From a bacterium (GTDB taxonomy: Bacteria > Patescibacteriota > Patescibacteriia > SG8-24): DNA of 64,000 bases. Under the pieces are notes generated by a model that saw only the letters and a list, made by a program, of their open reading frames with translations, had not been told where the DNA came from and searched no databases. The first letter of the stretch is position 1; each line of letters starts with the position of its first letter. The position numbers and the translations under genes were made by a program. The stretch covers positions 46 through 64,045 of the forward strand of contig JAHFIV010000001.1 in the NCBI GenBank assembly GCA_023246225.1, read 5' to 3'. This document shows positions 2,330 through 63,915 of this stretch, in pieces.

Positions 2330-3466
2330 GGCGTTCATTCTTTAATTCTATCCTACAAACTATTCAAGCTGAAGTTCAATAAAGCACCAACCGATCGGGA
2401 TACATAATAGATAATTGTGCAATGATCTCCCCCCAGTCTTTAAGTGGCTTTCCTGTCCATTTTTTTGTGATATCCAACTGTGCCAGCCAAAGGTGGTGAC
2501 GCAAGGATTCGTCGCTTGTAAAAATATTCACCGTCTTAATTTCTCGACGGAACTGGCTGTGCAGACTTTCAATGGGATTGGTTGTGTAAATCAATCGTCT
2601 CACAGGCGCACTGTAAGCAAAGTATGGAGCGATTTCAGACCACTCTTTCTCCCAGCGCACCAAAAACGGCTTGAAGTCTGGCCATTTTTCCATCATGTCA
2701 GTAAGACCGACACGCCCCGCCTCCTCAGTTGGAGCGGTGTACACCTCTTTCAAATCGCCACAAAATTTCTCTTTTCGGTGACCCTTAACGAAATGGCCAG
2801 TGCTTCGAATCATGTGATTCACGCACTGCTGTATGGTTGCGTTCGGAAAAACAGCCTTTATGGCCTGTGAGAAACCTTTCAGACCATCGATGCAACAGAT
2901 CAAAATATCTTCGACTCCTCTATTTTTTAAATCAGTGAGAACCTGCATCCAAAACTTTGCGCCTTCAGTATCCGCGATCCATATACCCAAAAGTTCTTTT
3001 TCGCCATCCATGTTCACACCCAAGGCGTGATAGCTGCATTTGGCAACAGTTTTGCCACTCTCGCGCACGGAGCAACGCATGCCGTCGAGAAAGACGATCG
3101 GATAGACGCGTGCAAGTGGTCTTGTTACCCACTCATGCATTTGTGGAAGCGTTTCCTCTATTGCATGTCCAATTTGCGTGCGCGAAGCGTCAATCCCATC
3201 TGCTTTTAAAATCTGCTGGATTCCTCCAGTGGTCATGCCTTTGGTTTTCAACGCGAGTATCTTTGCCTCAATACCATTTTTAGATAACGCCAAGCGGCTC
3301 CCGACCTCTTTTTCAATCATGGACCCCAAATCGACACTAAAATGTTCTTTCATGAACACTGACATCTCTTCTGCCGTTTTGATACCCTGCATTCTTTCCT
3401 GTGTTGCGATCGATAAAGATTCCATAGATGTTTTTATGGTGATGTTAGTAGTCTCGTTGTCGAGTG
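2330..3466. mobile_element. IS256-family insertion sequence, approximate extent; terminal inverted repeats not resolved
   Basis: Single transposase ORF. The ends could not be defined by eye. The 41-nt gap to the adjacent ParB-like gene limits the right flank. Confidence 0.4.
2376..3425 (-). CDS. IS256-family (Mutator-type) transposase
   Basis: Transposase_mut hallmarks: DDE region and the characteristic C-terminal YTTNPIESLHSQFRR motif. 349 aa. Confidence 0.9.
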   Translation of the reverse strand: MESLSIATQERMQGIKTAEEMSVFMKEHFSVDLGSMIEKEVGSRLALSKNGIEAKILALKTKGMTTGGIQQILKADGIDASRTQIGHAIEETLPQMHEWVTRPLARVYPIVFLDGMRCSVRESGKTVAKCSYHALGVNMDGEKELLGIWIADTEGAKFWMQVLTDLKNRGVEDILICCIDGLKGFSQAIKAVFPNATIQQCVNHMIRSTGHFVKGHRKEKFCGDLKEVYTAPTEEAGRVGLTDMMEKWPDFKPFLVRWEKEWSEIAPYFAYSAPVRRLIYTTNPIESLHSQFRREIKTVNIFTSDESLRHHLWLAQLDITKKWTGKPLKDWGEIIAQLSIMYPDRLVLY

Positions 3467-12000: not shown

Positions 12001-12882
12001 ATGACTAACGTTGATGAAGTTCGGACATCAAAAAGGATCCTCAAAATCCTTGCCGAATACGCCGATGGCTCGTCCAGGGTAAAAAATCTGACCGAAGAAC
12101 CTTTCAAATTGACCGCGATACCACCAGACTCCAAGACAACAATTCAAACACACTATTTTTTACCATCCAATGAATTTGATGGTCTAGAATTTTCCGTTAT
12201 TCAACAACGGCTAGGCCTCTCATTTAATGCCCTAAAGGAGGAACTTCTAAATTTTCTCAAGCTTGGTTTCGTACACATTTTTAGAAAAAGTTCGCGTAAT
12301 GATTTTTTAAACAGAATTTTTTCTCAAACGACCACACCGTCTTCTCGGACACTTACTTTAACAAATTGGAATTCGCCACAAAATTATCTCGTTTCAATAA
12401 CCGACGAGGGACGAAAAAATCTCAAAACTATACTTCGTCAACCGAATAAGCAAATACAGACCGAGAAGATAAAAAATGAGGTAACAAAAAAATATGACGT
12501 TGAAGAAGTCTATCGTATTAAGTTTAAGGATTTTAAAAATGTGGAAAAACAATCTTTTTTCCAATACGGTGAAAAAATTGCTCCTCTTCCTAGATACACA
12601 ATCCGAGCCAGAAGCCGTAGCATTCAACGATTGGTTGCGAAATTTCTGTATACGGGAACAAACTTAAAAAAGATTTCCTGTGAATGGGACGAGATCGAAG
12701 AATTTCTAACCGAAAACGGTATAGGACCGGTGGGTGGCGCAAAATCTGAAGGGTGGGGAGAGCACAAAAAAATACAAAAAATGATTCGAGATGCAATCAG
12801 GGCAATAAACAAAAAAACTAAAGAATGTTTTGGATTTAAAATCCTAAAACACTCTCGTGGTTTGATTATCAAATCAAAATAA
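12001..12882 (+). CDS. hypothetical protein (island cargo)
   Basis: A 293-aa ORF that is AT-rich and Lys-rich. Followed by a hairpin with a T-run. Confidence 0.5.
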   Translation: MTNVDEVRTSKRILKILAEYADGSSRVKNLTEEPFKLTAIPPDSKTTIQTHYFLPSNEFDGLEFSVIQQRLGLSFNALKEELLNFLKLGFVHIFRKSSRNDFLNRIFSQTTTPSSRTLTLTNWNSPQNYLVSITDEGRKNLKTILRQPNKQIQTEKIKNEVTKKYDVEEVYRIKFKDFKNVEKQSFFQYGEKIAPLPRYTIRARSRSIQRLVAKFLYTGTNLKKISCEWDEIEEFLTENGIGPVGGAKSEGWGEHKKIQKMIRDAIRAINKKTKECFGFKILKHSRGLIIKSK

Positions 12883-12943
12883 TTATTTCCTAAAAGTGAG
12901 TCACATTTCAAAAAGGTGAGTCACGCTCAGTCACATCCCCAAA

Positions 12944-12976
12944 GAGTAGTCTGCATTACGCAGGCTACTTTTTTAT
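12944..12976 (+). terminator. intrinsic terminator-like hairpin with T-run
   Basis: GAGTAGTCTGCATTACGCAGGCTACT followed by TTTTTTA. Preceded by direct repeats GTGAGTCAC x2. Confidence 0.45.
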
Positions 12977-13139
12977 TTACCCCGCCGAATCTAAAAAGCT
13001 CATCTAACAATATGTCCCCACAAAAATCTTCCCCAAACGCAACAGGACCGCCCGTTAAGGCGATCCTGTACGAAACGCAAGACTCTCTAAAAGCCACGTT
13101 TATAATTTTATTTTAACCTTATTACTTAACTAAAGCAAT

Positions 13140-13514
13140 ATGATCGTAAGCGCCCCAACATACAGCATTTGTCCTACCGGTCGATACAACCTATGTATTA
13201 TTGGCAACCCTGAAGAAATAAAAAATCCATTCGATCCAAACAAAAAACTTATTGAGATTCAATTCGAGGCTAAGTCTGTCGATGGGCAAAAATTCACCGT
13301 GTCTCTCCGGTGCAGTCCAGTGCTGCATCCGAAAGGGCATCTATTGCCTTTGGTGGAGGCTATTCTTGGTCGTCAGCTCACCATTCAAGAGCAGCTTCGT
13401 TTCGATCTCGACTCCATCAATGGCTGTGTTGTGAGTGGAGAGGTCACCCACCAGGCCTCGACTCGAGGAAACGTGTATCCCAAAGTAGGTAATTTCAAAA
13501 AAGCTGCTAGCTAA
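13140..13514 (+). CDS. hypothetical protein
   Basis: A 124-aa ORF immediately upstream of the primase gene. Confidence 0.4.
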   Translation: MIVSAPTYSICPTGRYNLCIIGNPEEIKNPFDPNKKLIEIQFEAKSVDGQKFTVSLRCSPVLHPKGHLLPLVEAILGRQLTIQEQLRFDLDSINGCVVSGEVTHQASTRGNVYPKVGNFKKAAS

Positions 13515-13522
13515 TCGTTCAT

Positions 13523-15820
13523 ATGACGGACAGTACAATACTAGCCGCAGCTCTCGAATACCGAAAAATGGGCTGGAGTGTAATCCCTGTTCGACTTTCT
13601 TTTGAGGAAGGAAGAACAGACAAGGCGCAGAAAAAACCTCTTATTGATTGGAAAGACCACCAAACACGCATCGCGAGCGAAGATGAGTTAAAAACCTGGT
13701 GGAAAAAATGGCCCGAAGCACAGATTGGTGTGGTGACAGGAAAAATTTCTGGACTCGTTGTTCTTGACGTTGACCCAGGTGCAACCATTGAAAAGATCAA
13801 TGAATTACGGATCCCTCCCACTCCGACCGTGAAAACACCGAGAGGCTTTCACTATTACCTGAAATACCCTGGAAGCCCGATGAAAAATGCGACTGATCTT
13901 TTTGGCAGAAATTCTCATATTGACCTTCGTGCTGATGGTGGGTTCGCAGTCATTCCGCCTTCTGTATATCCAGATGGAAGAACGTATGAGTGGGCTATTC
14001 ATCCTGACGCGGAGGATCTTGCCGCGGTGCCTGCCATCTTGCTTCTGAGTCAGGCGAGCGATAAAAATGGAACATTAAAATCCATCGCGAACGGTGTCAC
14101 TGAGGGTTCGCGTAATGATTCGGCAGCGAAATTCATTGGAGCGGTGATTTCACGCGCTCCTCAAGCTGAGTGGAAAAATGTTGGCTGGCAGGAGGCTGTT
14201 CGGTGGAATATGACTAATTCTCCACCACTCCCTAAAGAGGAGTTAGAACAGGTTTTTAGCAGTATCACCGCGCGAGAGGCCGCAAGGATTAAGTTTCCTG
14301 TAGAGGAAACTGAAGAAAATGTTCCATCGAAAGCAAGAAATTCTGAATCAGGAGCGGACAATCTCCTTGGAATCGCCAAAAGGAAAGGTGTTGACCTTTT
14401 CCATAATGAAACAGGAGAACCGTACGCTCGTATCCCTATCCACGACCATTTCGAGATCTGGCCTTGTAAGCACAGTCAGATGCAACGGTGGCTGTCATAT
14501 CTGTTTTATGAAAACACTGGATCCGCACCAAAAACAGATGTATTAACGCAAACCGTCAACATGCTGGAATCCATGGCCTCTTATGATGGAGAAAGGCGCA
14601 AGCTTCATAACCGTGTGGCTTGGTATGAAGGATCCTTTTGGTATGACCTTACGGATGCGGACTGGCGCGTGGTGAGAATAGATGGAAATGGCTGGGAGAT
14701 CGTTGCGGCACCTCCTATATTGTTTCAGCGATACGCGCATCAGCAACCACAGGTCGAGCCACAATCAGGCATGGACACAAAGAAAATTCTGGAGTTCGTA
14801 AACATTACGAATGAAGCTGATCAAATTCTGTTTCTGGTTTTCTTGATCTCCTGTTTCATTTCAGGATTTCCACATCCCATCCTCGTTCCCAATGGACAGC
14901 GCGGGTCGGCAAAGAGCACACTATTCCGACTCATCAGAAAAATTGTTGATCCGTCTATTCCTGAACTTCTGTCGCTTCCAAAAAGACCTGAGGAGCTCGT
15001 ACAACTTCTCTCACATCACTGGTTAGCGCCCTTCGATAATGTGACTGCGATCAATGATGCAACTTCCGACGCTCTTTGTCGCGCGATCACCGGTGATGGG
15101 TTCAGTAAGCGTCGCTTATATTCTGACGATGAGGACGTGATCTATGAATTCCTTCGCTGCCTCGGTCTCAATGCGATCAACAACATGGTCACAAAGCCAG
15201 ACCTTCTCGAGCGCTCGCTTCTCATTAATCTTGAAAGAATTCCAAATGAAAACCGCAGGGAAGAAAAGGTTTTTTGGGATGACTTTGCAAAAGCGAGACC
15301 GATGATCTTGGGTGGTATCTTCGACCTCCTAAGCCGCACCATACCCTTACATGAGTCCTTGGTGCTCAACGAGCTTCCCAGGATGGCTGACTTCACCCGC
15401 TGGGGCTGTGCTATCAGTGAGGCTTTGGGGTACGGCAAGGAGAAATTTCTTGATGCCTACAAACTGAACATCGCTGCACAAACGGAAGAAGCGATCAGGG
15501 AAAACCCAGTGGCAGACGCGCTCGTTCTCTTCATGGAAACACAGAAAGTTGTATGGAACGGTACCGCAAGTGTTTTGTTGGAAAAATTAAAAGAGGTTGC
15601 CGCAGGACAAGGGACAGACATGGATGACCGAGGTTGGCCGAAGGGAGCGAATGTTCTCTCCAAAAAACTGAAAGAACTAAAAACAACGCTCGTGGAAAAG
15701 GGCATACATATGTTCCAAGCAGGAAGAGAAATCACTCTCTATAAAAGTGATCTAAAAATGGACACGGGCGCGAGCGAGAAATCAGAGCCGGAATTCCCCA
15801 CCGAGACCTTTTTCAGGTGA
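13523..15820 (+). CDS. bifunctional DNA primase/polymerase (Prim-Pol N-domain) fused to a phage/plasmid P4-type primase C-terminal P-loop domain
   Basis: N-terminal Prim-Pol motifs: GWSVIPV, LVVLDVDP and FAVIPPSVYPDGRTYEW. Central D5_N-like region. Walker-A-like GQRGSAKST. Confidence 0.8.
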   Translation: MTDSTILAAALEYRKMGWSVIPVRLSFEEGRTDKAQKKPLIDWKDHQTRIASEDELKTWWKKWPEAQIGVVTGKISGLVVLDVDPGATIEKINELRIPPTPTVKTPRGFHYYLKYPGSPMKNATDLFGRNSHIDLRADGGFAVIPPSVYPDGRTYEWAIHPDAEDLAAVPAILLLSQASDKNGTLKSIANGVTEGSRNDSAAKFIGAVISRAPQAEWKNVGWQEAVRWNMTNSPPLPKEELEQVFSSITAREAARIKFPVEETEENVPSKARNSESGADNLLGIAKRKGVDLFHNETGEPYARIPIHDHFEIWPCKHSQMQRWLSYLFYENTGSAPKTDVLTQTVNMLESMASYDGERRKLHNRVAWYEGSFWYDLTDADWRVVRIDGNGWEIVAAPPILFQRYAHQQPQVEPQSGMDTKKILEFVNITNEADQILFLVFLISCFISGFPHPILVPNGQRGSAKSTLFRLIRKIVDPSIPELLSLPKRPEELVQLLSHHWLAPFDNVTAINDATSDALCRAITGDGFSKRRLYSDDEDVIYEFLRCLGLNAINNMVTKPDLLERSLLINLERIPNENRREEKVFWDDFAKARPMILGGIFDLLSRTIPLHESLVLNELPRMADFTRWGCAISEALGYGKEKFLDAYKLNIAAQTEEAIRENPVADALVLFMETQKVVWNGTASVLLEKLKEVAAGQGTDMDDRGWPKGANVLSKKLKELKTTLVEKGIHMFQAGREITLYKSDLKMDTGASEKSEPEFPTETFFR

Positions 15821-16256
15821 AAAAATCTAAAAACGATAGAACGATAGAAACGATCTTTTTATAGCCTTTGAAGATTAAAAGAGGGTTAAGAAGAGGGTAG
15901 TAGAGAGGTATAGAGATAGAAAAATCATCGTTTTGATCGTCCTATCGTCATGGAAAGGTTCTTCCGACTGAAAACTTGATTCAAATCAACCTCCTAAAGT
16001 TGAGTAAGAACTCATTCCAAGGCGAACCTCAGCCAAATAACAAAGATTACAAGATTCATATCTTAGTTTAATAGGTTTAAAACCTATGATTAGGACAACG
16101 CACCGTGCGCGACTAGACAAAAGACTAATTAATTGATTTTTAATCAATTTTAAACCATCAAAATAATCTGTTAAAGTAAGCAACGTTGACCAGAAGCGGT
16201 CAGATGACACCACTTGTTATCACCGCTCTCCAGCCGTTGCACTTTAACAACTTAAT

Positions 16257-16499
16257 ATGACCACCGATTCCACAAAAAATAACGATACGAGTATCCATGA
16301 GTATCTCAATGTGAAAGAGTTTGCTGCCGCTTTAAGACTTTCTGTAACCAGTTGTTACCGTCTTGTGCAACAAAGGCTCATTCCTTTCCATCGCTTACGA
16401 GGAGGACTCAGATTTCATCAAAAGGATGTCGATGCTTACTTCAAAGCATGCCGCGTGGAGTCGGTGACGAGGAAAGATTATGAGTGCAAGAAGGAATAA
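16257..16499 (+). CDS. excisionase/AlpA-like HTH DNA-binding protein
   Basis: An 80-aa ORF with an HTH (LNVKEFAAALRLSVTSCYRLVQQRLIPFHRL). Overlaps the integrase start. Confidence 0.6.
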   Translation: MTTDSTKNNDTSIHEYLNVKEFAAALRLSVTSCYRLVQQRLIPFHRLRGGLRFHQKDVDAYFKACRVESVTRKDYECKKE

Positions 16500-17595
16500 G
16501 AATAGAAATTCTTGGTCGGTCGATTTCCAAATCGATGGAATTCGTTACCGTCAACGAAGCCCTGAGAATACCGGGGCCGGTGCTAAGGCATACGAAGCCG
16601 TATTGCGACAAAGATTGGCGCGGGGTGAATCGATTCATGCGAAACCAGCACCAGTTGCTCAGGAGGTGAAGACCTTCGAAGTCTTTTGTAAGGAGTGGTT
16701 CAATACGTACGTGCTCACGAACAGCTCACCAAAAGAACGAGTGCGCAAAGAGTCTGCCCTGCGGGTGCACATCATTCCATTCTTTGGGGCTCGAAAACTC
16801 ACAATGATCACTAATCGCGCCATAGAAGAGTTCAAGGCTTCCCTCCAAAAGCAGGGTCTCGCACCGAACAGTGTAAATAACACCCTAAATGTTCTTACGC
16901 GATGTCTGCGGTCAGCAGTTGAATGGGGTGAGCTTGGTGTGCTGCCAAACGTCAAAAGAATGAAGGTCCCTCCTACTAAATTTGATTTTCTCTCCCCCGA
17001 AGAGACCGATCGACTCTTTGCTGCAACAAAAAAAGATATGCCTTGGCATCTCATGCTCATGATCGCCGCAAGAACAGGTATGAGATTCGGAGAAATTATT
17101 GTACTGGAGTGGGGAGATGTTGATTTTGAGCGGCGAACAATCACCATTCAACGCTCTCTTAGTAATCGAGTAATCACTGCACCAAAGAACAACAAAAAAA
17201 GATTTGTACCTATCGCTCCAGACCTCTTTCCCGTCTTGTGGGAGTATCGGCAACAGAGTGGGTTGGTACTCCCTGGACCACAGGGCGACTACTTAACTCA
17301 TTCAATGGGGAGAACGGCGCTCGAGAAGTATCGACGGAATGCGGCGATAAGAAAGATCGGGTGGCACACGCTTCGCCATTCCTTCGCGTCACAATTAGTC
17401 TCCAGAGGAGTTTCATTGCGGATTGTCCAGGAACTTCTTGGACATTCAGATATGCGGGTTACACTTCGTTATGCGCACCTCGCACCCTCTAGCCTGAGAC
17501 AAGCGATCAATCTCCTGACGTTGCCCGAGGTAGAAGAAGAAATGTCTACCGGCTGTCAACGCAACATCCTTGAAGACAAAAAATCATTACAATAG
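16480..17595 (+). CDS. tyrosine-type site-specific integrase
   Basis: C-terminal catalytic region HTLRHSFASQLVSRGVSLRIVQELLGHSDMRVTLRYAHL, covering the R...HxxR...Y motif arrangement. N-terminal SAM-like domain. Confidence 0.9.
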   Translation: MSARRNKNRNSWSVDFQIDGIRYRQRSPENTGAGAKAYEAVLRQRLARGESIHAKPAPVAQEVKTFEVFCKEWFNTYVLTNSSPKERVRKESALRVHIIPFFGARKLTMITNRAIEEFKASLQKQGLAPNSVNNTLNVLTRCLRSAVEWGELGVLPNVKRMKVPPTKFDFLSPEETDRLFAATKKDMPWHLMLMIAARTGMRFGEIIVLEWGDVDFERRTITIQRSLSNRVITAPKNNKKRFVPIAPDLFPVLWEYRQQSGLVLPGPQGDYLTHSMGRTALEKYRRNAAIRKIGWHTLRHSFASQLVSRGVSLRIVQELLGHSDMRVTLRYAHLAPSSLRQAINLLTLPEVEEEMSTGCQRNILEDKKSLQ

Positions 17596-17660
17596 CACCT
17601 CCTCTCACCGCCAGTTTCTTGCAAAAATAAGGCTAAAAATGTAGTATGGCGATACAACGT

Positions 17661-17748
17661 GGAGGGGTGGCCGAGAGGTTTAAGGCAACAGTCTTGAAAA
17701 CTGTCGTTCTGAAAGGAACCGTGAGTTCGAATCTCACCCCCTCCGCCA
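17661..17748 (+). tRNA. tRNA-Ser(TGA): tRNA-Ser (anticodon TGA)
   Basis: Manually folded cloverleaf: acceptor stem GGAGGGG/CCCCTCC, anticodon loop CTTGAAA, long variable arm, T-loop GTTCGAATC, discriminator G, encoded CCA. 88 nt. Confidence 0.85.
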
Positions 17749-26546: not shown

Positions 26547-26916
26547 TTAATTACGCAAAATGACGGTCGATAAATTTTTGTGACGAAGAAATTTTCCTAT
26601 ACCCTCTCGCAAACGTCTTCGCGGATCATCAATCGATGCGTCACACAAAAAAATCTGAGAGAGAAAAATAACAAAAGAAAAAAACAGGGCAATAGACTCG
26701 ATCGCGACCATGGTTGCCGCAGGCGACACCGATCTCACGCAATGATCCAGGCAATTAGTGTCGCTGCCGTGCGACATCGGTAAAGAACTGCACGCGTCCC
26801 CCATACATTGTCCCATCCCCATGTCAGTGCCAGGCATACCAAAAAATGCCATGCCCGCAAAAGAGAGGGTCATGAGAAGCAATGAGGCGAATACCGTGTA
26901 GGAAATAAGTCGACGC
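26547..26916 (-). CDS. small Met/His/Cys-rich membrane-anchored protein (putative copper-binding)
   Basis: MPGTDMGMGQCMGDACSSLPMSHGSDTNCLDHC region rich in Met/Cys/His. Immediately upstream of copA on the same strand. Confidence 0.4.
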
Positions 26917-26967
26917 ATATCTACATTCACTATAGCAGATTTCAAAAAATAAACCTTGCATGCTCTC

Positions 26968-27250
26968 TTTGTCATTCCAGCTTCCTTCTATTGTCATTCC
27001 GGACCCCTCTTCTTGTCATTCCGGCCTCCGAGCCGGAATCCATGCGAACAAAATAACCAAACAAATTTTGTTTGATCTTTTTTTACGTTCTGGATTCCGG
27101 GTCACGGCCCGGAATGACAAAAAAGAAGGGTCGGAATGACAAAAGAATGATGGCGGAATCCAGAATAAAAAAAGGCCAAACGAAAATTGTTTGGCTTTAC
27201 GGTTCTGGGTCCTGAATCCCCCGGACCTGATCCGGGGTCAGGATGACAAT
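26968..27250. repeat. MITE-like palindromic repeat cluster R1 (TGTCATTCCGG family)
   Basis: Three 22-nt tandem units starting TGTCATTCC, then hairpin modules (CCGGCCTCCGAGCCGG; CCAAAC-N-GTTTGG with a T-run; TTCTGGATTCCGGGTCACGGCCCGGAATGACAA). Shared with loci R2-R5. Confidence 0.8.
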
Positions 27251-27816: not shown

Positions 27817-27927
27817 AGATACTTATACCTGATCCATAAGTATTTGCAACACCGCGCCTTATGCGCGCCGTTCTCAATACCAGATAGAAACAACATATGC
27901 TAAAATCTACACTTAGAACCTTCCCCT

Positions 27928-28494
27928 ATGAAAAAAGTCTTTATCGTCCATGGCTTAGGGAGCAGCCCGAACGGCGGTTGGCGTCCTTGGCTTATGGGTG
28001 AACTCAAAAAACATCACGTCTACGCGTGCGCGCTTGCAATGCCCACTCCCGATGAACCGGTTTGTGCTGAGTGGGTCGAGGAGATCGCGAGACATGTAGA
28101 AAAAAATGCGAATGATGAAATTTTTCTTGTCGGGCACAGCCTCGGTGTTTCTGCGATCCTGCGCTATCTAGAAACTGCGCCAGAAAAAATTCGTGTGTCT
28201 GGTGTCGTACTTGTATCTGGACGCTGCACTTCTCATCCGAATAAAAAATTGGCCAATTTTTTTGAACCAGCTTTTCATTTTGCAACGATCGCTTCTCGAG
28301 CGCGTTCGTTTACTATCATTCACGGCGATGACGACCAGGTCGTTTCTTTCGATAACGCCGAAATACTCTCACGGGAGTTGCACGCAGAGCTTATCGTGAT
28401 ACCGAAAGGTGGACATCTGAACGGTGGAAGCGGTTGGCAAACGCTCCCCGCGTGTCTCGATACGCTCATGAAAATGATTGGCTCATCCTCTTAG
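27928..28494 (+). CDS. alpha/beta serine hydrolase, RBBP9/YdeN family
   Basis: Nucleophile elbow GHSLG plus a C-terminal HGDDDQVVS and GGHL arrangement typical of the family. 188 aa. Confidence 0.8.
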   Translation: MKKVFIVHGLGSSPNGGWRPWLMGELKKHHVYACALAMPTPDEPVCAEWVEEIARHVEKNANDEIFLVGHSLGVSAILRYLETAPEKIRVSGVVLVSGRCTSHPNKKLANFFEPAFHFATIASRARSFTIIHGDDDQVVSFDNAEILSRELHAELIVIPKGGHLNGGSGWQTLPACLDTLMKMIGSSS

Positions 28495-32418: not shown

Positions 32419-32496
32419 ACGTTTGAACTATGGATCCCGGATCGGCCGTCGCCGCGCGACGCCCGCCCGGGATGACGCGCGCAAAGGAAATGCGCG

Positions 32497-32964: not shown

Positions 32965-33888
32965 TCATCCGAAGCGCACCGTGCGATTAAGCTCCATTAT
33001 CGCTGCGAATTCGTCCTTATTCAGCGCCGGTTCACGCTTTTTTTCGAGCTCGGCGATAACATCGAGAATCGGCTTACCTTCGAGACCACCACGAAGCATG
33101 GAGAGGTAGAGTTTGTTCACCTCGCTGTCCTGCCACGCTTTTATCCCCTGCGTTTTTATTTCGAAACCAAGATCATCGAGCAAATCGATCTTATCTTTAA
33201 TCTTGAGCGTGGCTTCGCGAGGATCTTTAGAGAGTCTACGAAAATCTTTGAGCGTGAGTGCGCGGAGTTCTTCGACTGGACCGGTTAGTCGCGGAGTAAA
33301 TTTTACGTCGGAGATCGTTTGCGCTGGTGGTGTTACTGTTGGCGCGGCTGCCGGTGTCGCGCGGGGCACGGGCGCGCTTGCTACTGGTTTCGGCGCAACA
33401 GGTTGCGGTTCATTTTTTGCGATCGGAGCAACAGGTAAATTCGGTGGTGCTGGTGCTTTTTCTTGCGGGGCAGCGGGTGACGTTACTGCGATAACGCGCG
33501 GTTCTGCAGGCGGCGTTTCTGATAGCGATTTTTGTGGCGTGGTTTGTGCAGCGCCACTTACTTTCGTCACCAATTTTGCAAACGCGCTATCGTTCGCTGC
33601 TTTTTCTTTTTGTTGCTGCTCGTCGGCTTCGTTCATCATCTTCGCTGTACGCACTGCGACATACTCCGCTTTTTCATTTGCGACACGACGCACATCTTTT
33701 GCGTGATACGCCGCATTTTTTTCTTTAAAAACCACCATCGCTTTCTCGGCGTCTGCGTCACTCACCCCCATTCCCCCACTTGCGATCGGCATAGTAAGTT
33801 TCGACGTCGTTTCCAGGACGTCACGGAGATCGCGAAAATACATCGACACAAGCATACGAAAGCGACGCCGCTCATCATCATCTTTCAC
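32965..33888 (-). CDS. hypothetical protein with long Pro/Ala-rich linker (T4SS-like cluster)
   Basis: A 307-aa ORF. The annotated start is GTG, overlapping the upstream stop by 1 nt; an alternative ATG lies 11 codons downstream. Confidence 0.5.
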   Translation of the reverse strand: MKDDDERRRFRMLVSMYFRDLRDVLETTSKLTMPIASGGMGVSDADAEKAMVVFKEKNAAYHAKDVRRVANEKAEYVAVRTAKMMNEADEQQQKEKAANDSAFAKLVTKVSGAAQTTPQKSLSETPPAEPRVIAVTSPAAPQEKAPAPPNLPVAPIAKNEPQPVAPKPVASAPVPRATPAAAPTVTPPAQTISDVKFTPRLTGPVEELRALTLKDFRRLSKDPREATLKIKDKIDLLDDLGFEIKTQGIKAWQDSEVNKLYLSMLRGGLEGKPILDVIAELEKKREPALNKDEFAAIMELNRTVRFG

Positions 33889-35126
33889 TACGATTCCAGA
33901 TGCGGCGATCGCTTCGTCTGCGGCGGTATCGTATGGGGTTGCTGATGGGACGATTTTTTTTCTGGATTCCGGCTCGGGGGCAGGAATGACAGAAGATAGA
34001 GGGGTAGGGGTGATTGAAGAAGTGGATGGCGGAATGACAACGGTTTTGGTCCTGGTGCGGGGGCAGGAATAACAGATGGAGGTGTTACGGGTTTTGGTGG
34101 TGGTACGGCTTTTTTTTCTGGATTCCGGCTCGGAGGCCGGAATGACATGTTCCGGGTCAAGCCTGGAATGACAAGAGAAGTGGTAGCCGGAATGACAGAA
34201 GTGACAGACGGAACGACAGGAGCAGGAGAGGCTGGGATGACAGAAGAAAGAGCAGGCAGAGTGACAGGAGATGGGGGCGTTGCTGGTTGCGGTGGTTTTG
34301 GTGGTGGTACAACCACTGGTTTTTTCACTTCTTCTTTTACGATTCTGGATTCCGGCTCGGAGGCCGGAATGACAATAGACGAAGGGGTTGGCGAGGCTGC
34401 GAGGCTTACTTTTCGCCCAAATCGGCCGGCGAGTTCCTTGGTTTTCTGCAGGAACCTCTCTTTTGTTTGGCGCTCTCGCTCTTCTCGCTCCTTTGCATTT
34501 TTTATCGCTTCCTCTTTGAGCGCAGGTAACTTTGGAGCGGCTTCGTGCAGTAACGCGATAACCGCAGCGCTCTGTTCGGGAGAAAATTCAGACCCCCCGG
34601 TTTTCACCGGCTTCTCAAGCATCTCCTTCGTTGCATTTTCATCATGAATACCTTTCAACTGTGCGGTCACGATCGTCTCAAACCGACGACGCAGCACGTG
34701 ATCACTCGGCGCGTATCCGCTTTTCTCCACAATCCCCCGTGCCATCACCTCGATCGGATCGACCGCGGGAGGTAGCGGCGGAAGAAATTCATCAGCGTGC
34801 AGATCTTTGTAAATCTTTTGCTGCTCTTCAAGAAGCTCTGTAGCATCAGCGAGCACATCAGCGAACGCATCACCTTGCACATCGAGCGCTTTTTCAAAAG
34901 GTATCCCTGCGTTGTCCTCAAGCCAGCTCGCAAGATCATCATCAGAAATTTTTCCGAGCGCAATCATGCGCACACCGCTCAAAAATTCGTTTGTCTGTAC
35001 GGGAGTGAGCTCGTGTCGCACCGCGATCTCGTCAAATTTTTTCTGTCGCTCAGACGCAGCGAAAAAGGTCTCCAGCTCCGGGAGTACCCACTCGTCCTCC
35101 TTGAACGTGAAGACCGGTTCGGTCAT
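33888..35126 (-). CDS. hypothetical acidic protein whose C-terminal ~140 aa are encoded by palindromic repeat cluster R2
   Basis: Continuous ORF. Residues after about 245 read VIPASEPES / SFRPPSRNPEKK, the translation of GTCATTCCGGCCTCCGAGCCGGAATCC-type repeats. Confidence 0.5.
   Translation of the reverse strand: MTEPVFTFKEDEWVLPELETFFAASERQKKFDEIAVRHELTPVQTNEFLSGVRMIALGKISDDDLASWLEDNAGIPFEKALDVQGDAFADVLADATELLEEQQKIYKDLHADEFLPPLPPAVDPIEVMARGIVEKSGYAPSDHVLRRRFETIVTAQLKGIHDENATKEMLEKPVKTGGSEFSPEQSAAVIALLHEAAPKLPALKEEAIKNAKEREERERQTKERFLQKTKELAGRFGRKVSLAASPTPSSIVIPASEPESRIVKEEVKKPVVVPPPKPPQPATPPSPVTLPALSSVIPASPAPVVPSVTSVIPATTSLVIPGLTRNMSFRPPSRNPEKKAVPPPKPVTPPSVIPAPAPGPKPLSFRHPLLQSPLPLYLLSFLPPSRNPEKKSSHQQPHTIPPQTKRSPHLES
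33958..34376. repeat. MITE-like palindromic repeat cluster R2, located inside a reading frame
   Basis: At least four TTCTGGATTCCGGCTCGGAGGCCGGAATGACA-type units within the 33888..35126 ORF. Confidence 0.8.
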
Positions 35127-37868: not shown

Positions 37869-38087
37869 TGTCATTCCGGCCTCCGAGCCGGAATCCAGAA
37901 AAATTAAAAAGACCAAACGGAAATCGTTTGGCTTTACGGTTCTGGATTCCGGGTCACGGCCCGGAATGACAATAAAGGAGGCCGGAATGAAAGAGGGGTG
38001 GCTGGGTTCCACTCAACAAAAAGACCAAACGATTTCCGTTTGGTCTTTTTTACGTTTCTGGATTCCGGGTCAAGCCCGGAATGACAA
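37869..38087. repeat. MITE-like palindromic repeat cluster R3 (two adjacent elements) between the giant gene and the VirB6-like gene
   Basis: Starts TGTCATTCCGGCC and ends CCCGGAATGACAA. Contains two AAAAAGACCAAACG-N5-CGTTTGG-T-run bidirectional terminator-like hairpins. Confidence 0.8.
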
Positions 38088-52329: not shown

Positions 52330-53437
52330 TTATCCCTTCTTCCCGGCATTCTGTCGCAGATATGCTTCGACAAATTGATCGAGGTCGCCATCGAGAACTT
52401 CCTGGGTGTTCTGCGTTTCGTACTTTGTGCGATGATCTTTCACCATCTGGTACGGATGGATCACGTACGAACGAATCTGATTCCCCCACTCCGCGCTCGT
52501 GAATTCGCCGCGCAGTTTCTTTTTTTCTTCTGCGCGTTCTTCGAGATACACCTTGTGCAACTTCGCACGCAAAATGCGCATCGCGGTTTCTTTATTCTGT
52601 GTTTGTGAACGCTCGTTCTGACAGGTAACGACGATGCCGGTCACGAGGTGTGTGATGCGCACCGCAGAATACGTCGTCTGTACACCTTGGCCACCGTGAC
52701 CGCCAGCGAGATATGTATCGATGCGCAAATCCTGCGGAAGAATTTTTACTTCTTCGATGTCACCGAGTTCGGGGAGAACTTCGAGTAGCGCGAACGATGT
52801 TTGGCGAAGTTGATCTGCATTGAACGGCGAGAGACGCACGAGTCGATGCACGCCCGCTTCGGCTTTGAGAAAACCGTATGCGTAACGACCTTCAACAGAA
52901 AACGTTGCGCTTTTGATCCCCGCTTCATTTCCTCGCGACTCGTCGAGCAGTTTCACCTTCCAACCTTTGCGCTCAGCATAACGAAAATACATACGCATCA
53001 GCATCTCCGCCCAATCCTGTGCATCGGTTCCTCCCGCGCCGGCGTGAATCGCAAGGATCGCGTCGTTCTCATCGAACTTATCGCCCATCAGCGTCGCAAA
53101 TTCGAGCTTTGCAAACTTCTGCAGCAACTCCTCCAATTGTTTTTTTGCATCGGCTTCCGCGGTCGTGTCATTTTCATCTTCCGCAAGACGCGCAAAATCT
53201 AAAAGTTCATCGGTGTCTGCGCGCAACTGATCCCACTCACTGTAATATGATTTGATATCTGCGAGTCGACGGCTCACGCGCTGCGCATGTTCCTGATTTT
53301 TCCAAAAATCTGGCTGCTGCGTTTCCCACTCGGTTGCGTCGATGTCCGCCTTGGTTTTTGCGAGGTCAAAGTAACCCCCAAGTATCGGAGATCCGGCCGC
53401 GGAGATTCTCGATATCCTGGAGGTGTGGCTTTATCAT
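52330..53437 (-). CDS. prfB: peptide chain release factor 2, requires programmed +1 frameshift
   Basis: SPF and GGQ motifs. Frame 0 (ATG at 53437) ends ...GLL-TGA at 53366. The +1 frame continues FDLAKTKADI... to 52330. Confidence 0.85.
53366..53381 (-). promoter_or_regulatory. RF2 autoregulatory +1 frameshift site
   Basis: Minus strand reads TGGGGGTTACTTTGACC: SD-like GGGGG, then TTA CTT TGA C. Confidence 0.85.
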
Positions 53438-53775
53438 AACGTTATCTTTTGTGCGTACTTGCCGACGAGCGGAAGTTCCCACTTCACGCCCTGGAGTGTG
53501 CGCACGACGGCGATGATTGAAACGATGAACATTGTGAAACTCAGGACTGCACCGACCCATGCGTGAAGAAATCCGAAACTGAGTATGACATCGATTGCGA
53601 ACAGCACGATCCCTTGCCGAACGTGATACTTACAAAACTCACTATCCTTCCTGACGAGCATCGGGATGAGAAAAAGAATGCCGAGATACGCGAGCGCGGC
53701 GAGAATGCGCTCTTCGGTATCCTTTTTTGGCGCTGGCGGTGTCGATTGATGAAGAGTCTCTTCCATATATGCCAT
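53434..53775 (-). CDS. small DUF4870-like membrane protein
   Basis: AALAYLGILFLIPMLVRKDSEFCKYHVRQGIVLF motif with 2-3 TM segments. Start trimmed to ATG 53775, because the upstream extension runs into repeat R4. Stop overlaps the prfB ATG (ATGA). Confidence 0.55.
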   Translation of the reverse strand: MAYMEETLHQSTPPAPKKDTEERILAALAYLGILFLIPMLVRKDSEFCKYHVRQGIVLFAIDVILSFGFLHAWVGAVLSFTMFIVSIIAVVRTLQGVKWELPLVGKYAQKITL

Positions 53776-53814
53776 GCTACAGCGGTACGCCGTTTCTTTC
53801 AACGGACCACCCAT

Positions 53815-53960
53815 TGTCATTCCGGCCCGCCTTTTTGTCATTCCAGCCTCCTCTTCTTGTCATTCCGGGCCGTGACCCGGAATCCAGAACCGTAAAGCCA
53901 AACGATTTCCGTTTGGCCTTTTTATTTTTCTGGATTCCGGCTCGGAGGCCGGAATGACAA
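53815..53960. repeat. MITE-like palindromic repeat cluster R4
   Basis: Three 22-nt TGTCATTCC units, then CGGGCCGTGACCCGGAATCCAGAA, a CCAAACG-N5-CGTTTGG hairpin, and TTCTGGATTCCGGCTCGGAGGCCGGAATGACAA. Confidence 0.8.
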
Positions 53961-60665: not shown

Positions 60666-61898
60666 TTATTCCTCCTTAGACGGTTCCGTTTCGGTAATTG
60701 TGACCACTTCTTCGGGGATACCCTCCGCGATCGCCGGCGCATCTGCAGGAGCGTTCGCTTCGCGAATATTGATCCGCCATCCGGTCAAACGCGATGCAAG
60801 ACGAACGTTCTGTCCACCCTTACCGATCGCGAGCGATAGTTGATCTTCCGGCACCATGACGTCCGCGACTCGCGCGTTTTCATCGAGAGTGATCTGTGTC
60901 ACTTTTGCTGGCGAAAGCGCGTTCGTGATAAACCGCGTCGCATCTTCATCAAACTGAATGATGTCGATCTTCTCGCCGCCAAGTTCGCTGATCACCGTCT
61001 GAATGCGCGTGCCGCGTTGACCGATGCACGAGCCGATCGGATCGACGTTCTCTTGCGTAGAAGACACCGCAACCTTAGAACGAGAACCTGCCTCGCGAGC
61101 GATCATATGAATGTTCACGATTCCACCTGCCACTTCAGGAATTTCCAACATGAACAATTTCTTTACGATCTCTGGATGTGCGCGTGACACCACAACCTCA
61201 GGACCTTTTGTGGTCATGCGTACGTCGGTCACAAAAACCTTCACGCGATCTCCTGATGCGTATCGCTCCGTCGGAATCTGTTCTTCTGGCGGGAGCACGG
61301 CGGTTGTGCGACCGAGATCGATCAACACCATCTTACCATCACGACGCTGCACGGTCGCGTTGATCAGTTCCTTTTCGCGATCCTTGAATTCGTTAAACAA
61401 TTTATTGCGTTCCGCTTCACGAATTTTTTGAATGATCACCTGCTTGGCGGTTTGCGCAGCCATGCGACCGAAAGCAGACGGCACTTCAAGTTTCGTTTTA
61501 ATCTCCTCGCCGATCTCCGCATCCTTCTTCAGCGACTCTCGCGCTGCGGTGACCATGATCTCTGTTTTTGGATTGAACTTTTTTTCTTCCTCGCCTTCCG
61601 CGACACCAGTTTCCTGGCGGCGAGGTCGTTCGTCGCGCATGTTGCGTACGATCTCCGGTTCATTCCCCTCGAGAAGTTCCGTTGGTAACTCCTGATCTTC
61701 TACAACAGTTTTAATATCAAATACTTCAAATTCTCCACTTTCTGGATCGAATGCGACTTTCAAATTCTGATTTTTGGTACCGAAATCTTTTCGGTATGCC
61801 GCAGCGAGTGCGGCTTCGATCGTTTCGATGACCGACTCTGCCGGAATATTTTTTTCCTCGCTAATTTGTGTGATCGCTTGGAGTAATGGTGACGACAT
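60666..61898 (-). CDS. nusA: transcription termination/antitermination factor NusA
   Basis: N-terminal NusA domain, an S1 domain, and two KH domains (GSCIGQRGTRIQ; GKGGQNVRLASRLTGW). Confidence 0.95.
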   Translation of the reverse strand: MSSPLLQAITQISEEKNIPAESVIETIEAALAAAYRKDFGTKNQNLKVAFDPESGEFEVFDIKTVVEDQELPTELLEGNEPEIVRNMRDERPRRQETGVAEGEEEKKFNPKTEIMVTAARESLKKDAEIGEEIKTKLEVPSAFGRMAAQTAKQVIIQKIREAERNKLFNEFKDREKELINATVQRRDGKMVLIDLGRTTAVLPPEEQIPTERYASGDRVKVFVTDVRMTTKGPEVVVSRAHPEIVKKLFMLEIPEVAGGIVNIHMIAREAGSRSKVAVSSTQENVDPIGSCIGQRGTRIQTVISELGGEKIDIIQFDEDATRFITNALSPAKVTQITLDENARVADVMVPEDQLSLAIGKGGQNVRLASRLTGWRINIREANAPADAPAIAEGIPEEVVTITETEPSKEE

Positions 61899-63710: not shown

Positions 63711-63915
63711 TGTCATTCCGGCCCCATCTCTGTCATTCCTCTCTTCTGTTGTCATTCCGGGCCGTAACCCGGTCCTTTTCCTTGTCATTCCGGGCCGTGA
63801 CCCGGAATCCACGTAACAAAGTAACCAAACAGTTTTTGTTTGGTCTTTTTTTACGTTCTGGATTCCGGCTCGGGGGCCGGAATGACATGTTCCGGCTCGG
63901 AGGCCGGAATGACAA
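63711..63915. repeat. MITE-like palindromic repeat cluster R5
   Basis: Four tandem TGTCATTCC units, CGGGCCGTGACCCGGAATCC, a CCAAACAG-N-TGTTTGG hairpin with a T-run, and a TTCTGGATTCCGGCTCGGGGGCCGGAATGACA terminal palindrome. Confidence 0.8.

Follow-up and report, generated by a model that had tools for sequence, protein, structure and literature searches.

A probable translated linker built from dispersed palindromic repeats in a protein of a type IV secretion-like gene cluster, its gene split by one missing base

The 64,000-nucleotide stretch of contig JAHFIV010000001.1 analysed here (hereafter the window) carries at positions 33958-34376 a cluster of palindromic repeats inside an open reading frame (ORF), and the question is what such a frame encodes: a gene with a repeat-derived tail that runs into the start of its neighbour, as a preliminary description of this DNA had proposed, or something else. 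The ORF itself is present as described, at 33888..35126 on the minus strand. It begins with ATG and specifies 412 amino acids (aa), of which the first ~235 residues form a helical, acidic domain; it runs without stops through the repeats, with the product ...SSIVIPASEPESRIVKEEVKK...VIPGLTRNMSFRPPSRNPEKK... that includes VIPASEPES and SFRPPSRNPEKK, and it ends at a TAG whose last base, 33888, is the first base of the GTG opening a 307-aa ORF (32965..33888), with an ATG 11 codons further on. A second minus-strand frame is also stop-free across the repeats and leads directly into the 307-aa ORF (...VVIPPSTSSITPTPLSSVIPAPEPESRKKIVPSATPYDTAADEAIAASGIVVKDDDERRRF...). Both open frames lie on this strand and not, as had been stated, on the plus strand, where the three frames contain 2, 8 and 5 stops. 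Our best explanation, to which we assign a probability of about 0.85, is that 33960-34374 belongs to the first linker (linker 1, residues ~237-395) of one 720-aa protein of a type IV secretion system (T4SS)-like cluster, and that this linker is built largely from dispersed palindromic repeats, is translated, and is split in the window by a missing base.

The conceptual fusion of the 412- and 307-aa ORFs matched a recorded 720-aa protein, P0001, with 100% identity (rounded) and 100% coverage, the sole difference in the sequence comparison being the residue at the splice point, which was chosen arbitrarily. P0001 is a single ORF on three contigs from three metagenome assemblies in ENA. DNA was readable for two of these contigs (L001 and L002, from independent short-read assemblies), and the window is 99.98% identical to L001 over 22.2 kb and 99.94% identical to L002 over 12.8 kb. 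Within the gene, the only difference from L001 is one missing A, and L002 differs by the same indel and one single-nucleotide polymorphism (SNP); at the site of the indel the intact allele reads ...APAPGPKTVVIPPSTSS... Because one A of an A5 run is missing, the 412-aa ORF closes with 51 residues of nonsense (LSFRHPLL...HLES, with the tail peptide LSFRHPLLQSPLPLYLL...), which are an out-of-frame reading, and the 307-aa ORF appears to start at GTG, a codon that in the intact protein specifies the second valine of GIVVKDDD. The gene-call collection contains no gene whose product is exactly the 412-aa sequence, and JGI metagenomes scanned for exact copies of the frameshift site in its two alleles gave 0 matches to either. 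The neighbouring 881-aa protein is recorded only on the same three contigs, each time followed by the 720-aa gene. Since three near-identical assemblies hold a single ORF, these comparisons show that the 412- and 307-aa ORFs are one gene and that there is no coupled start: the frame is not carried intact to a downstream initiation codon, the junction arises from a 1-nt deletion relative to three independent assemblies, and the 412-aa ORF is the 5' part of the 720-aa gene with its last 51 codons out of frame. The repeat region is genuine and not a collapsed or mis-assembled repeat, because L001 and L002 agree with the window base for base except for the one indel and the one SNP, and the third assembly encodes an identical 720-aa protein. 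Elsewhere in the alignment with L001 there is a second cluster of differences at 27907-27915, where one C is gone from a CC run and two A-to-G changes fall within 9 nt, a short distance upstream of the ORF 27928..28494; the cluster looks like real strain variation, not random error.

The repeat in question is a palindrome of 32 nt with the structure TGTC-ATTCCGGC-CTCCGA-GCCGGAAT-CCAGAA, and we refer to its copies as repetitive extragenic palindromes (REPs) also where they lie within a gene. With up to 3 mismatches allowed, the 32-mer TTCTGGATTCCGGCTCGGAGGCCGGAATGACA was found at 7 positions in the window against an expectation of 0.00, three of them in the gene (33960 with 2 mismatches, 34116 and 34343 both exact) and the others at 27014, 37869, 53928 and 63856. 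The 9-mer GGAATGACA occurs 24 times where 0.8 are expected, in five clusters, and the cluster in the gene has nine TGTCATTCC sites (at most 1 mismatch), all on the coding strand. RNA folding of copy 3 gave 4 unpaired nucleotides, an 8-bp stem and a 6-nt loop at -12.5 kcal/mol. In the intact protein identical units are read in two frames, as VIPASEPESR at 34343 and as SFRPPSRNPEKK at 34116; all three forward frames of the unit are without stops and give Pro/Ser-rich peptides. Because a single protein contains the 32-mer in two reading frames, the repeat is one of DNA and not of protein. Indeed, the copies 34116 and 34343 in the gene have the same sequence as the intergenic copies 37869 and 53928, and the similarity continues 5' of the palindrome into arms made of half-sites, e.g., ACCCCTCT.TCT followed by TGTCATTCC in the arm alignment. 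The tail CCAGAA is invariant among the aligned copies. The layout of the half-site array in the gene matches the arms of intergenic clusters (alignment with the arms at 26960, 53805 and 63700), and the double arrangement of a variant unit next to copy 2 recurs between genes at 63856-63914. Positions are collected in Table 1.

Table 1. Positions in the window of the 720-aa gene, its repeat units and the intergenic repeat clusters.
Feature	Position	Strand	Remarks
Gene for 720-aa protein, T4SS-like cluster	32965..35126	minus	split in the window into 412-aa (33888..35126) and 307-aa (32965..33888) ORFs
TAG, stop in shifted frame	33888..33890	minus	its G is base 1 of the GTG that is an internal Val codon (GIVVKDDD) of the intact protein
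Frameshift site	34044..34047 (T4 on plus strand)	minus (coding)	A4 in the window, A5 in L001 and L002: CCAGGACCAAAA[A]CCGTTGTC; base-by-base comparison
REP copy 3	34343..34374	minus	exact 32-mer consensus, read VIPASEPESR
REP copy 2	34116..34147	minus	exact 32-mer in the other frame, read SFRPPSRNPEKK also in the intact 720-aa allele; inside the 162-nt block
Variant or partial REP TGTCATTCCAGGCTTGACCCGGAAC	34149..34173	minus	read VIPGLTRN; abuts copy 2
REP copy 1	33960..33991	minus	2 mismatches; read VIPAPEPESRKK in the intact allele, SFLPPSRNPEKK in the shifted frame of the window
TGTCATTCC half-site array	34031..34242	minus	starts 34031, 34066, 34165, 34189, 34210, 34234; at most 1 mismatch; pyrimidine-rich spacers
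A8 run	34110..34117	minus (coding)	directly after the tail of REP copy 2; read from sequence
A8 run	33954..33961	minus (coding)	directly after the tail of REP copy 1; downstream of the frameshift, upstream of the frame-A stop
Intergenic repeat clusters	26970-27141 (to 27245 with wider bounds), 37869-38086, 53815-53959, 63711-63914		all between genes on one strand

Two orthologues of the 720-aa protein were found, each again a single ORF: P0002 with 683 aa and 77% identity, and P0003 with 653 aa and 55% identity. The loci of all three proteins have the same gene order, i.e., a giant protein, a membrane protein of 881-893 aa, the 720-aa-type gene, PrgI and a TraC-like gene, and the contigs L001 and L003 (the locus of P0002) reach further, to a VirB4-like ATPase. 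Their neighbours (PrgI, TraC-like and VirB4/DUF87 genes) bear out the earlier proposal that the palindromes lie in frame in a Pro/Ser/Val-rich linker of a T4SS-like-cluster protein. P0001-P0003 consist of a conserved N-domain, a middle domain and a C-domain, with two variable Pro-rich linkers between them. Linker 1, with 166, 126 and 97 aa in the respective lineages, keeps the frame of the sequence downstream in every case, and in none of the three orthologues does a stop precede the repeats; from this kept frame we infer that the linker repeats are translated. The suggestion that the tail is untranslated and the ORF over-extended was rejected in view of the conserved C-terminal domains, which follow downstream in the same gene in all orthologues. 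Peptides that would mark translation of the linker in two unit frames are SSIVIPASEPESR and NMSFRPPSR. The family to which the C-terminal 307 aa belong is large (2138 cluster representatives, E<=1e-3), and most of the matches listed are proteins of 400-800 aa which match at their C-terminal end; the N- and C-domains also occur together in single proteins of remoter relatives, e.g., P0004 and P0007. In an AlphaFold2 model (input alignment of 3 sequences, mean pLDDT 50; pLDDT, predicted local distance difference test) the helical N-domain scored 66-89, while residues 237-395 scored ~28-35 and had no secondary structure, so that these residues are predicted to be disordered, consistent with a flexible linker. 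Pfam searches with the 412-, 307- and 881-aa ORFs gave no family, and the 143-aa neighbour alone was assigned, as PrgI. A search of GTDB genomes for related loci with protein alignment gave no relative, and the JGI scan gave distant relatives only, at 29-46% identity, too remote for tracing at the DNA level. A word-indexed search with the N-terminal 239 aa gave no match although P0001 contains the sequence, which we take as a matter of search sensitivity.

Comparison of the linkers between relatives revealed a turnover of the repeats. In a linker alignment that favours long gaps, a block of 162 nt (54 codons) is present in L001 and the window and absent from the 77% orthologue on L003, so an allele lacking part of the repeats, of the kind for which an orthologue comparison had been suggested, does exist. 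Within the block fall copy 2 and the A8 run after it, the variant unit VIPGLTRN, the site of the frameshift and two half-units. A MAFFT alignment had instead made copy 2 of L001 the last REP of L003 by way of a compensated shift, an equation which was dropped, as the long-gap alignment gives a single difference of 162 nt. L003 has a 49-nt segment of its own (VIPDRDPGP...), offset by a 13-nt gap, net 36 nt. In addition, at the first palindrome of L003 the loop is shorter by 1 nt and the A-run longer by 4 nt, by which its 3' arm is read NPEK and not PESR and the frame is then restored; this variant, TGTC ATTCCGGG CTTGA CCCGGAAT, would have a 5-nt loop as read from the unfolded sequence. The P0003 gene has none of the units of the 32-nt palindrome, and the palindromes in its two linkers are different ones: GGGTCTGACCCCAGAGGGTCAGACCCC, read GSDPRGSDP, in linker 1 (L004 9816-9927), and a GGAGCCAGGCAC-flanked CCGGGACCGCGGTCCCGG, read EPGTPGPRSREPGT, in linker 2 (L004 10478-10600). 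On the same contig, a TGTCATTCCGGCCTTGAGCCGGAATCCAGAA dimer separates the PrgI gene from the TraC-like one. The signature peptides of the 32-nt unit occur only in P0001 and P0002 among the 152 family members (the motif is absent from 149 of the 152), and two further members have in linker 2 the peptides VIPAKAGIQ...PGFPIKSGMT...GRND (P0144, 573 aa) and IPSEARNL...GRND (P0096, 607 aa), which are translated sister palindromes of the TGTCATTCCCGC...GCGGGAATCCAG type, inserted independently in frame. It seems that, in this protein family, the linkers take up whatever palindromes are present in the genome of the host. Repeat variants turn over also at the intergenic site between the PrgI and TraC-like genes, where the window (~32425-32480) and L001 have a diverged CGTCATCCCGG...CCGGGATCCA palindrome while L003 (12537-12650) and L004 (11551-11635) have TGTCATTCC dimers; a CGTCAT variant of the tag is present between these two genes and also in other genomes.

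Three other readings of the locus are, in our view, very improbable. That the VIP motifs are an ordinary protein-level tandem repeat, produced by intragenic duplication and unrelated to dispersed DNA, would agree with the single orientation of the units and with parts that look duplicated, e.g., KK-(V)VPPPKP-TPPS after copies 3 and 2, and local duplication may well have amplified the units after a first insertion. As a full account it is already contradicted, for the 32-mers are identical to copies at four intergenic sites, the same unit is read in two frames, it occurs in at least 72 stretches from many phyla, and 149 of 152 family members are without the motif. The arrangement originally proposed, a 412-aa protein with a repeat-derived tail and a downstream gene coupled to it by the TAG/GTG overlap, has the geometry of the window ORFs exactly on its side, as well as the existence of a few family members of ~300 aa, e.g., P0005; we find it slightly harder still to credit, contradicted as it is by the one ORF in three near-identical assemblies, the 51 out-of-frame residues in place of which the other frame continues the conserved protein, and a GTG that is the second Val of GIVVKDDD. 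P0005, moreover, begins with Leu inside the conserved region and looks truncated rather than naturally short. Least probable of the three is that the repeats form an untranslated intergenic spacer, open by chance, which separates one gene for the N-domain from another for the C-domain. In its favour, the family lies between genes elsewhere, the coding strand has two open frames out of three and the unit is stop-free in all three forward frames; against it stand the 0 of 3 orthologues with a stop between N-domain and repeats, linker lengths that differ by multiples of 3 despite many indels, and the single proteins among remoter relatives (P0004, P0007) in which the two domains are joined.

The nature of the missing A is a much closer matter, and we lean only slightly towards a consensus error over a real and very recent mutation. 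A real frameshift, which would leave either a fresh pseudogene or a gene rescued by one added A (through slippage or a compensating indel) in the A8 run at 33954-33961, is a serious candidate somewhat short of even odds. The site falls in the indel-prone, lineage-specific 162-nt block, a compensated frame change beside a REP has occurred between orthologues, the intact protein itself has copy 2 in the "wrong" frame, and the A8 run sits between the deletion and the frame-A stop. One A added there would, speculatively, restore ...NPEKK followed by IVPSATPYD... with 28 linker residues altered. On the other side, the shifted allele is seen in the window only and the collection holds no exact 412-aa product, a contraction by a single base in a homopolymer is the classic consensus error, the gene is otherwise undamaged by disabling changes, and slippage on A8 is an assumption. 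Programmed -1 ribosomal frameshifting at the deletion site was considered and dropped, there being no X XXY YYZ heptamer in CCAAAACC. A bolder and rather unlikely extension would make arrays of TGTC-tagged REPs with A-runs a general, fast-evolving source of disordered linkers in small Patescibacteria-like genomes. Units would enter genes (for the T4SS protein, UvrA, MurT and glycosyltransferases), be read in whichever frame stays open, and have their frames swapped by paired A-run indels; the A4 of the window would then be a real intermediate, possibly rescued by slippage at the A8 run 33954-33961.

Several points weigh against the single translated, repeat-built linker that we prefer. Its disorder is weakly indicated, the AlphaFold2 model having been built on an alignment of three sequences, and its translation is deduced from a frame kept in just three close orthologues. 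A real frameshift is a possibility, and it would make the gene of this strain a pseudogene or a split gene. All units in the gene have one orientation, which could mean local duplication and not repeated insertion, and insertion itself is argued from presence and absence between alleles and from identity to intergenic copies, with no target-site duplication or mobilising enzyme found.

The intergenic clusters of the window share a common architecture, in which 2-4 TGTCATTCC half-units, each with ~13 pyrimidine-rich bases, are followed by one complete palindrome, by a terminator-like hairpin (ccaaacg...cgtttgg) with A- and T-runs on its sides and by a mirror-image arm. The spacing of half-units in these composites is ~20-22 nt. 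The composite at 37869-37971 folds end to end (-58.5 kcal/mol, z = -9.75), a terminator-like site was called at 37932..37912, and such composites may serve as terminators in both directions. The ORFs 26547..26975 and 53434..53841 open with an ATG that lies within a GGAATGACA half-unit (26973-26975 and 53839-53841, minus strand); both have probably been called too long, with starts that reach into the repeat, and the former ORF has a likelier start, MRRLISYTVF..., a few codons downstream. Rfam gave no family at the repeats, and no consistent flanking target-site duplication was seen when judged by eye. No Y1 transposase (the REP-associated tyrosine transposase, RAYT, or IS200/IS605 type) was present among 25 of 45 Pfam families for the 52 window ORFs in 64 kb. 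The only transposase in the window is an IS256-like ORF (Transposase_mut, 2376-3425), N-terminally truncated with profile positions 101-376 of 379; it is far from any cluster and has no evident link to the palindromic family. The NusA gene region (60666-61898) was dropped as a candidate mobiliser of the repeats, since no inverted repeats of the palindrome family flank the gene. At 12001-17745 a Prim-Pol protein (13523-15820), a tyrosine integrase (16480-17595) and a tRNA (17661-17745) occur together and may represent a mobile element integrated at a tRNA gene.

Outside the window, the pattern TGTCATTCCGG-N8-CCGGAATCCAGAA was found in at least 72 stretches of species-representative genomes. The labels among the matches listed include the Patescibacteria groups Saccharibacteria, Moranbacteria, Uhrbacteria, Gottesmanbacteria, Doudnabacteria, Kerfeldbacteria, Nomurabacteria and CPR2, as well as Cloacimonadota, Spirochaetia, Dehalococcoidia, Gammaproteobacteria, Zixibacteria, Omnitrophota and others, and most of these matches have an inverted partner 20-40 nt away, with a stem that is different yet self-complementary, e.g., CTGGATCCCGGGTCAAGCCCGGGATGACA. 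As the family occurs in many phyla, it is unlikely that the intergenic copies derive from the 720-aa gene. In-frame copies in other proteins were observed as well. The UvrA of a Patescibacteria metagenome-assembled genome (MAG; L062, JAQTPI010000009.1, ~2166-2270) has a 35-aa in-frame insert, ...SFRPESRNPEKMIPGSRVKPGMT..., which is a palindrome dimer and splits residues contiguous in solved structures (alignment of query 70-261 with chain 420-609 and of query 297-520 with chain 607-816). Among further GTDB MAGs, a gammaproteobacterial carboxyltransferase (L009) has the palindrome in frame between its CT_A_B and CT_C_D domains, a MurT-like ligase (L034) and a PMT-family glycosyltransferase (L052) have it in frame within domains, and a membrane protein that looks like an O-antigen ligase (L014) also carries it in frame. 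A different higher-order arrangement was noticed in a Cloacimonadota MAG (L044 6057-6334), where the palindrome stands four times in tandem with an 82-nt period. A literature search with the motif and its signature peptides returned primer matches only or nothing.

As a mechanism we propose that linker 1 would have absorbed forward-orientation units of this dispersed family and now be largely made of them, each unit having an unpaired TGTC tag, an 8-bp stem ATTCCGGC/GCCGGAAT, a loop of 5-6 nt and the CCAGAA tail, with truncated TGTCATTCC half-units alongside. The units probably entered the gene by insertion or recombination, were then locally amplified or lost, and would be transcribed and translated with it. 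Since all three unit frames are stop-free and Pro/Ser-rich, selection would presumably keep only an open frame and the flexibility of the segment, and not the peptide. The region would evolve at the DNA level, by gain and loss of repeat blocks and by changes in loop length and in the length of the A-run after the tail, the surviving combinations of indels being those that sum to a multiple of three. In annotations the 412- and 307-aa ORFs ought to be combined and marked as a single frameshifted gene, and the "coupled start" ought not to be carried forward.

The locus can be compared with several described systems. A translationally coupled gene pair differs from it in that every relative examined has a single ORF, of 720, 683 or 653 aa. 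[quoted passage not shown] Unlike such elements, our repeats gave no target-site duplication and no parent insertion sequence with matching ends, and the copies in genes are single arms and not whole composites. The Rickettsia palindromic elements (RPEs; Ogata et al., 2000, 2002), in the outline given by PMC10969869 and PMC3733652, similarly occur both between genes and in frame inside ORFs and add a peptide segment without destroying the protein. In that outline RPE-1 has ~100-150 bp and a conserved peptide in one frame, whereas here 32-nt units in more than one frame are heaped in one linker, predicted to be disordered, of a host that is not Rickettsia. A 2024 review of MITEs restates the RPE case and suggests that proteins may evolve likewise elsewhere (PMC10969869).

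The closest likeness is to the superfamily of CGTC-tagged REPs (Di Nocera, De Gregorio and Rocco, 2013; PMC3733652), which have an unpaired CGTC (or TGTC/CCTC) tag at the end of the palindrome, a stem of 8-9 bp with complementary A/T at the first and second positions, a loop of 4-5 nt with exceptions, and a short unpaired tail fitting CCA. They are mostly intergenic, between unidirectional genes, where they form inverted dimers with spacers of 20-100 bp that may contain a stem-loop; no dedicated transposase was reported, and they were known in 5 phyla, mostly in alpha-Proteobacteria. Intragenic copies are reported from several species, with uvrA and other repair genes as notable cases, in clusters encoding 43-82 aa, and it is argued in that paper that proteins can bear such inserts where linkers or loops are flexible. 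In the same work RPE-6 is CGTC-1 and RPE-4 is CGTC-4 (PMC3733652). It is through this published assignment that the label "RPE-like" of the preliminary description is well founded at the level of the repeat superfamily. The unit in our gene likewise has a TGTC before the stem that stays unpaired in the fold, an 8-bp stem whose first two pairs are A/T, and a tail fitting CCA; there are four intergenic clusters of inverted pairs around the ccaaacg...cgtttgg hairpin, and copies inside ORFs that include uvrA. It differs in the loop of the main 32-mer, with 6 nt against 4-5 in the four described families (5 as read in the L003 variant), in the longer tail, CCAGAA, often followed by an A-run, and in the arrays of truncated half-units that flank the palindromes. 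The host, too, is outside the phyla listed in 2013, the family being found in many Patescibacteria MAGs and in other phyla, the in-gene units are all head-to-tail, and their cluster of ~415 nt (~138 aa) is larger than those reported. On sequence criteria the 32-nt unit thus fits the CGTC/TGTC-tagged superfamily in all respects but loop length, which would extend intragenic REPs of the class of RPE-4 and RPE-6 to a genome likely of the candidate phyla radiation, judging by its gene cluster and by the places in which relatives turned up. That REPs and RPEs lie inside genes and are tolerated in loops or linkers was described in 2000-2013, and what is distinctive here is the size of ~415 nt, the reading in two frames, the presence or absence of a 54-codon block between close relatives, the likely host, the interruption of UvrA and other conserved enzymes by the same unit in other MAGs, and the breadth across phyla, by which known biology is refined and not overturned.

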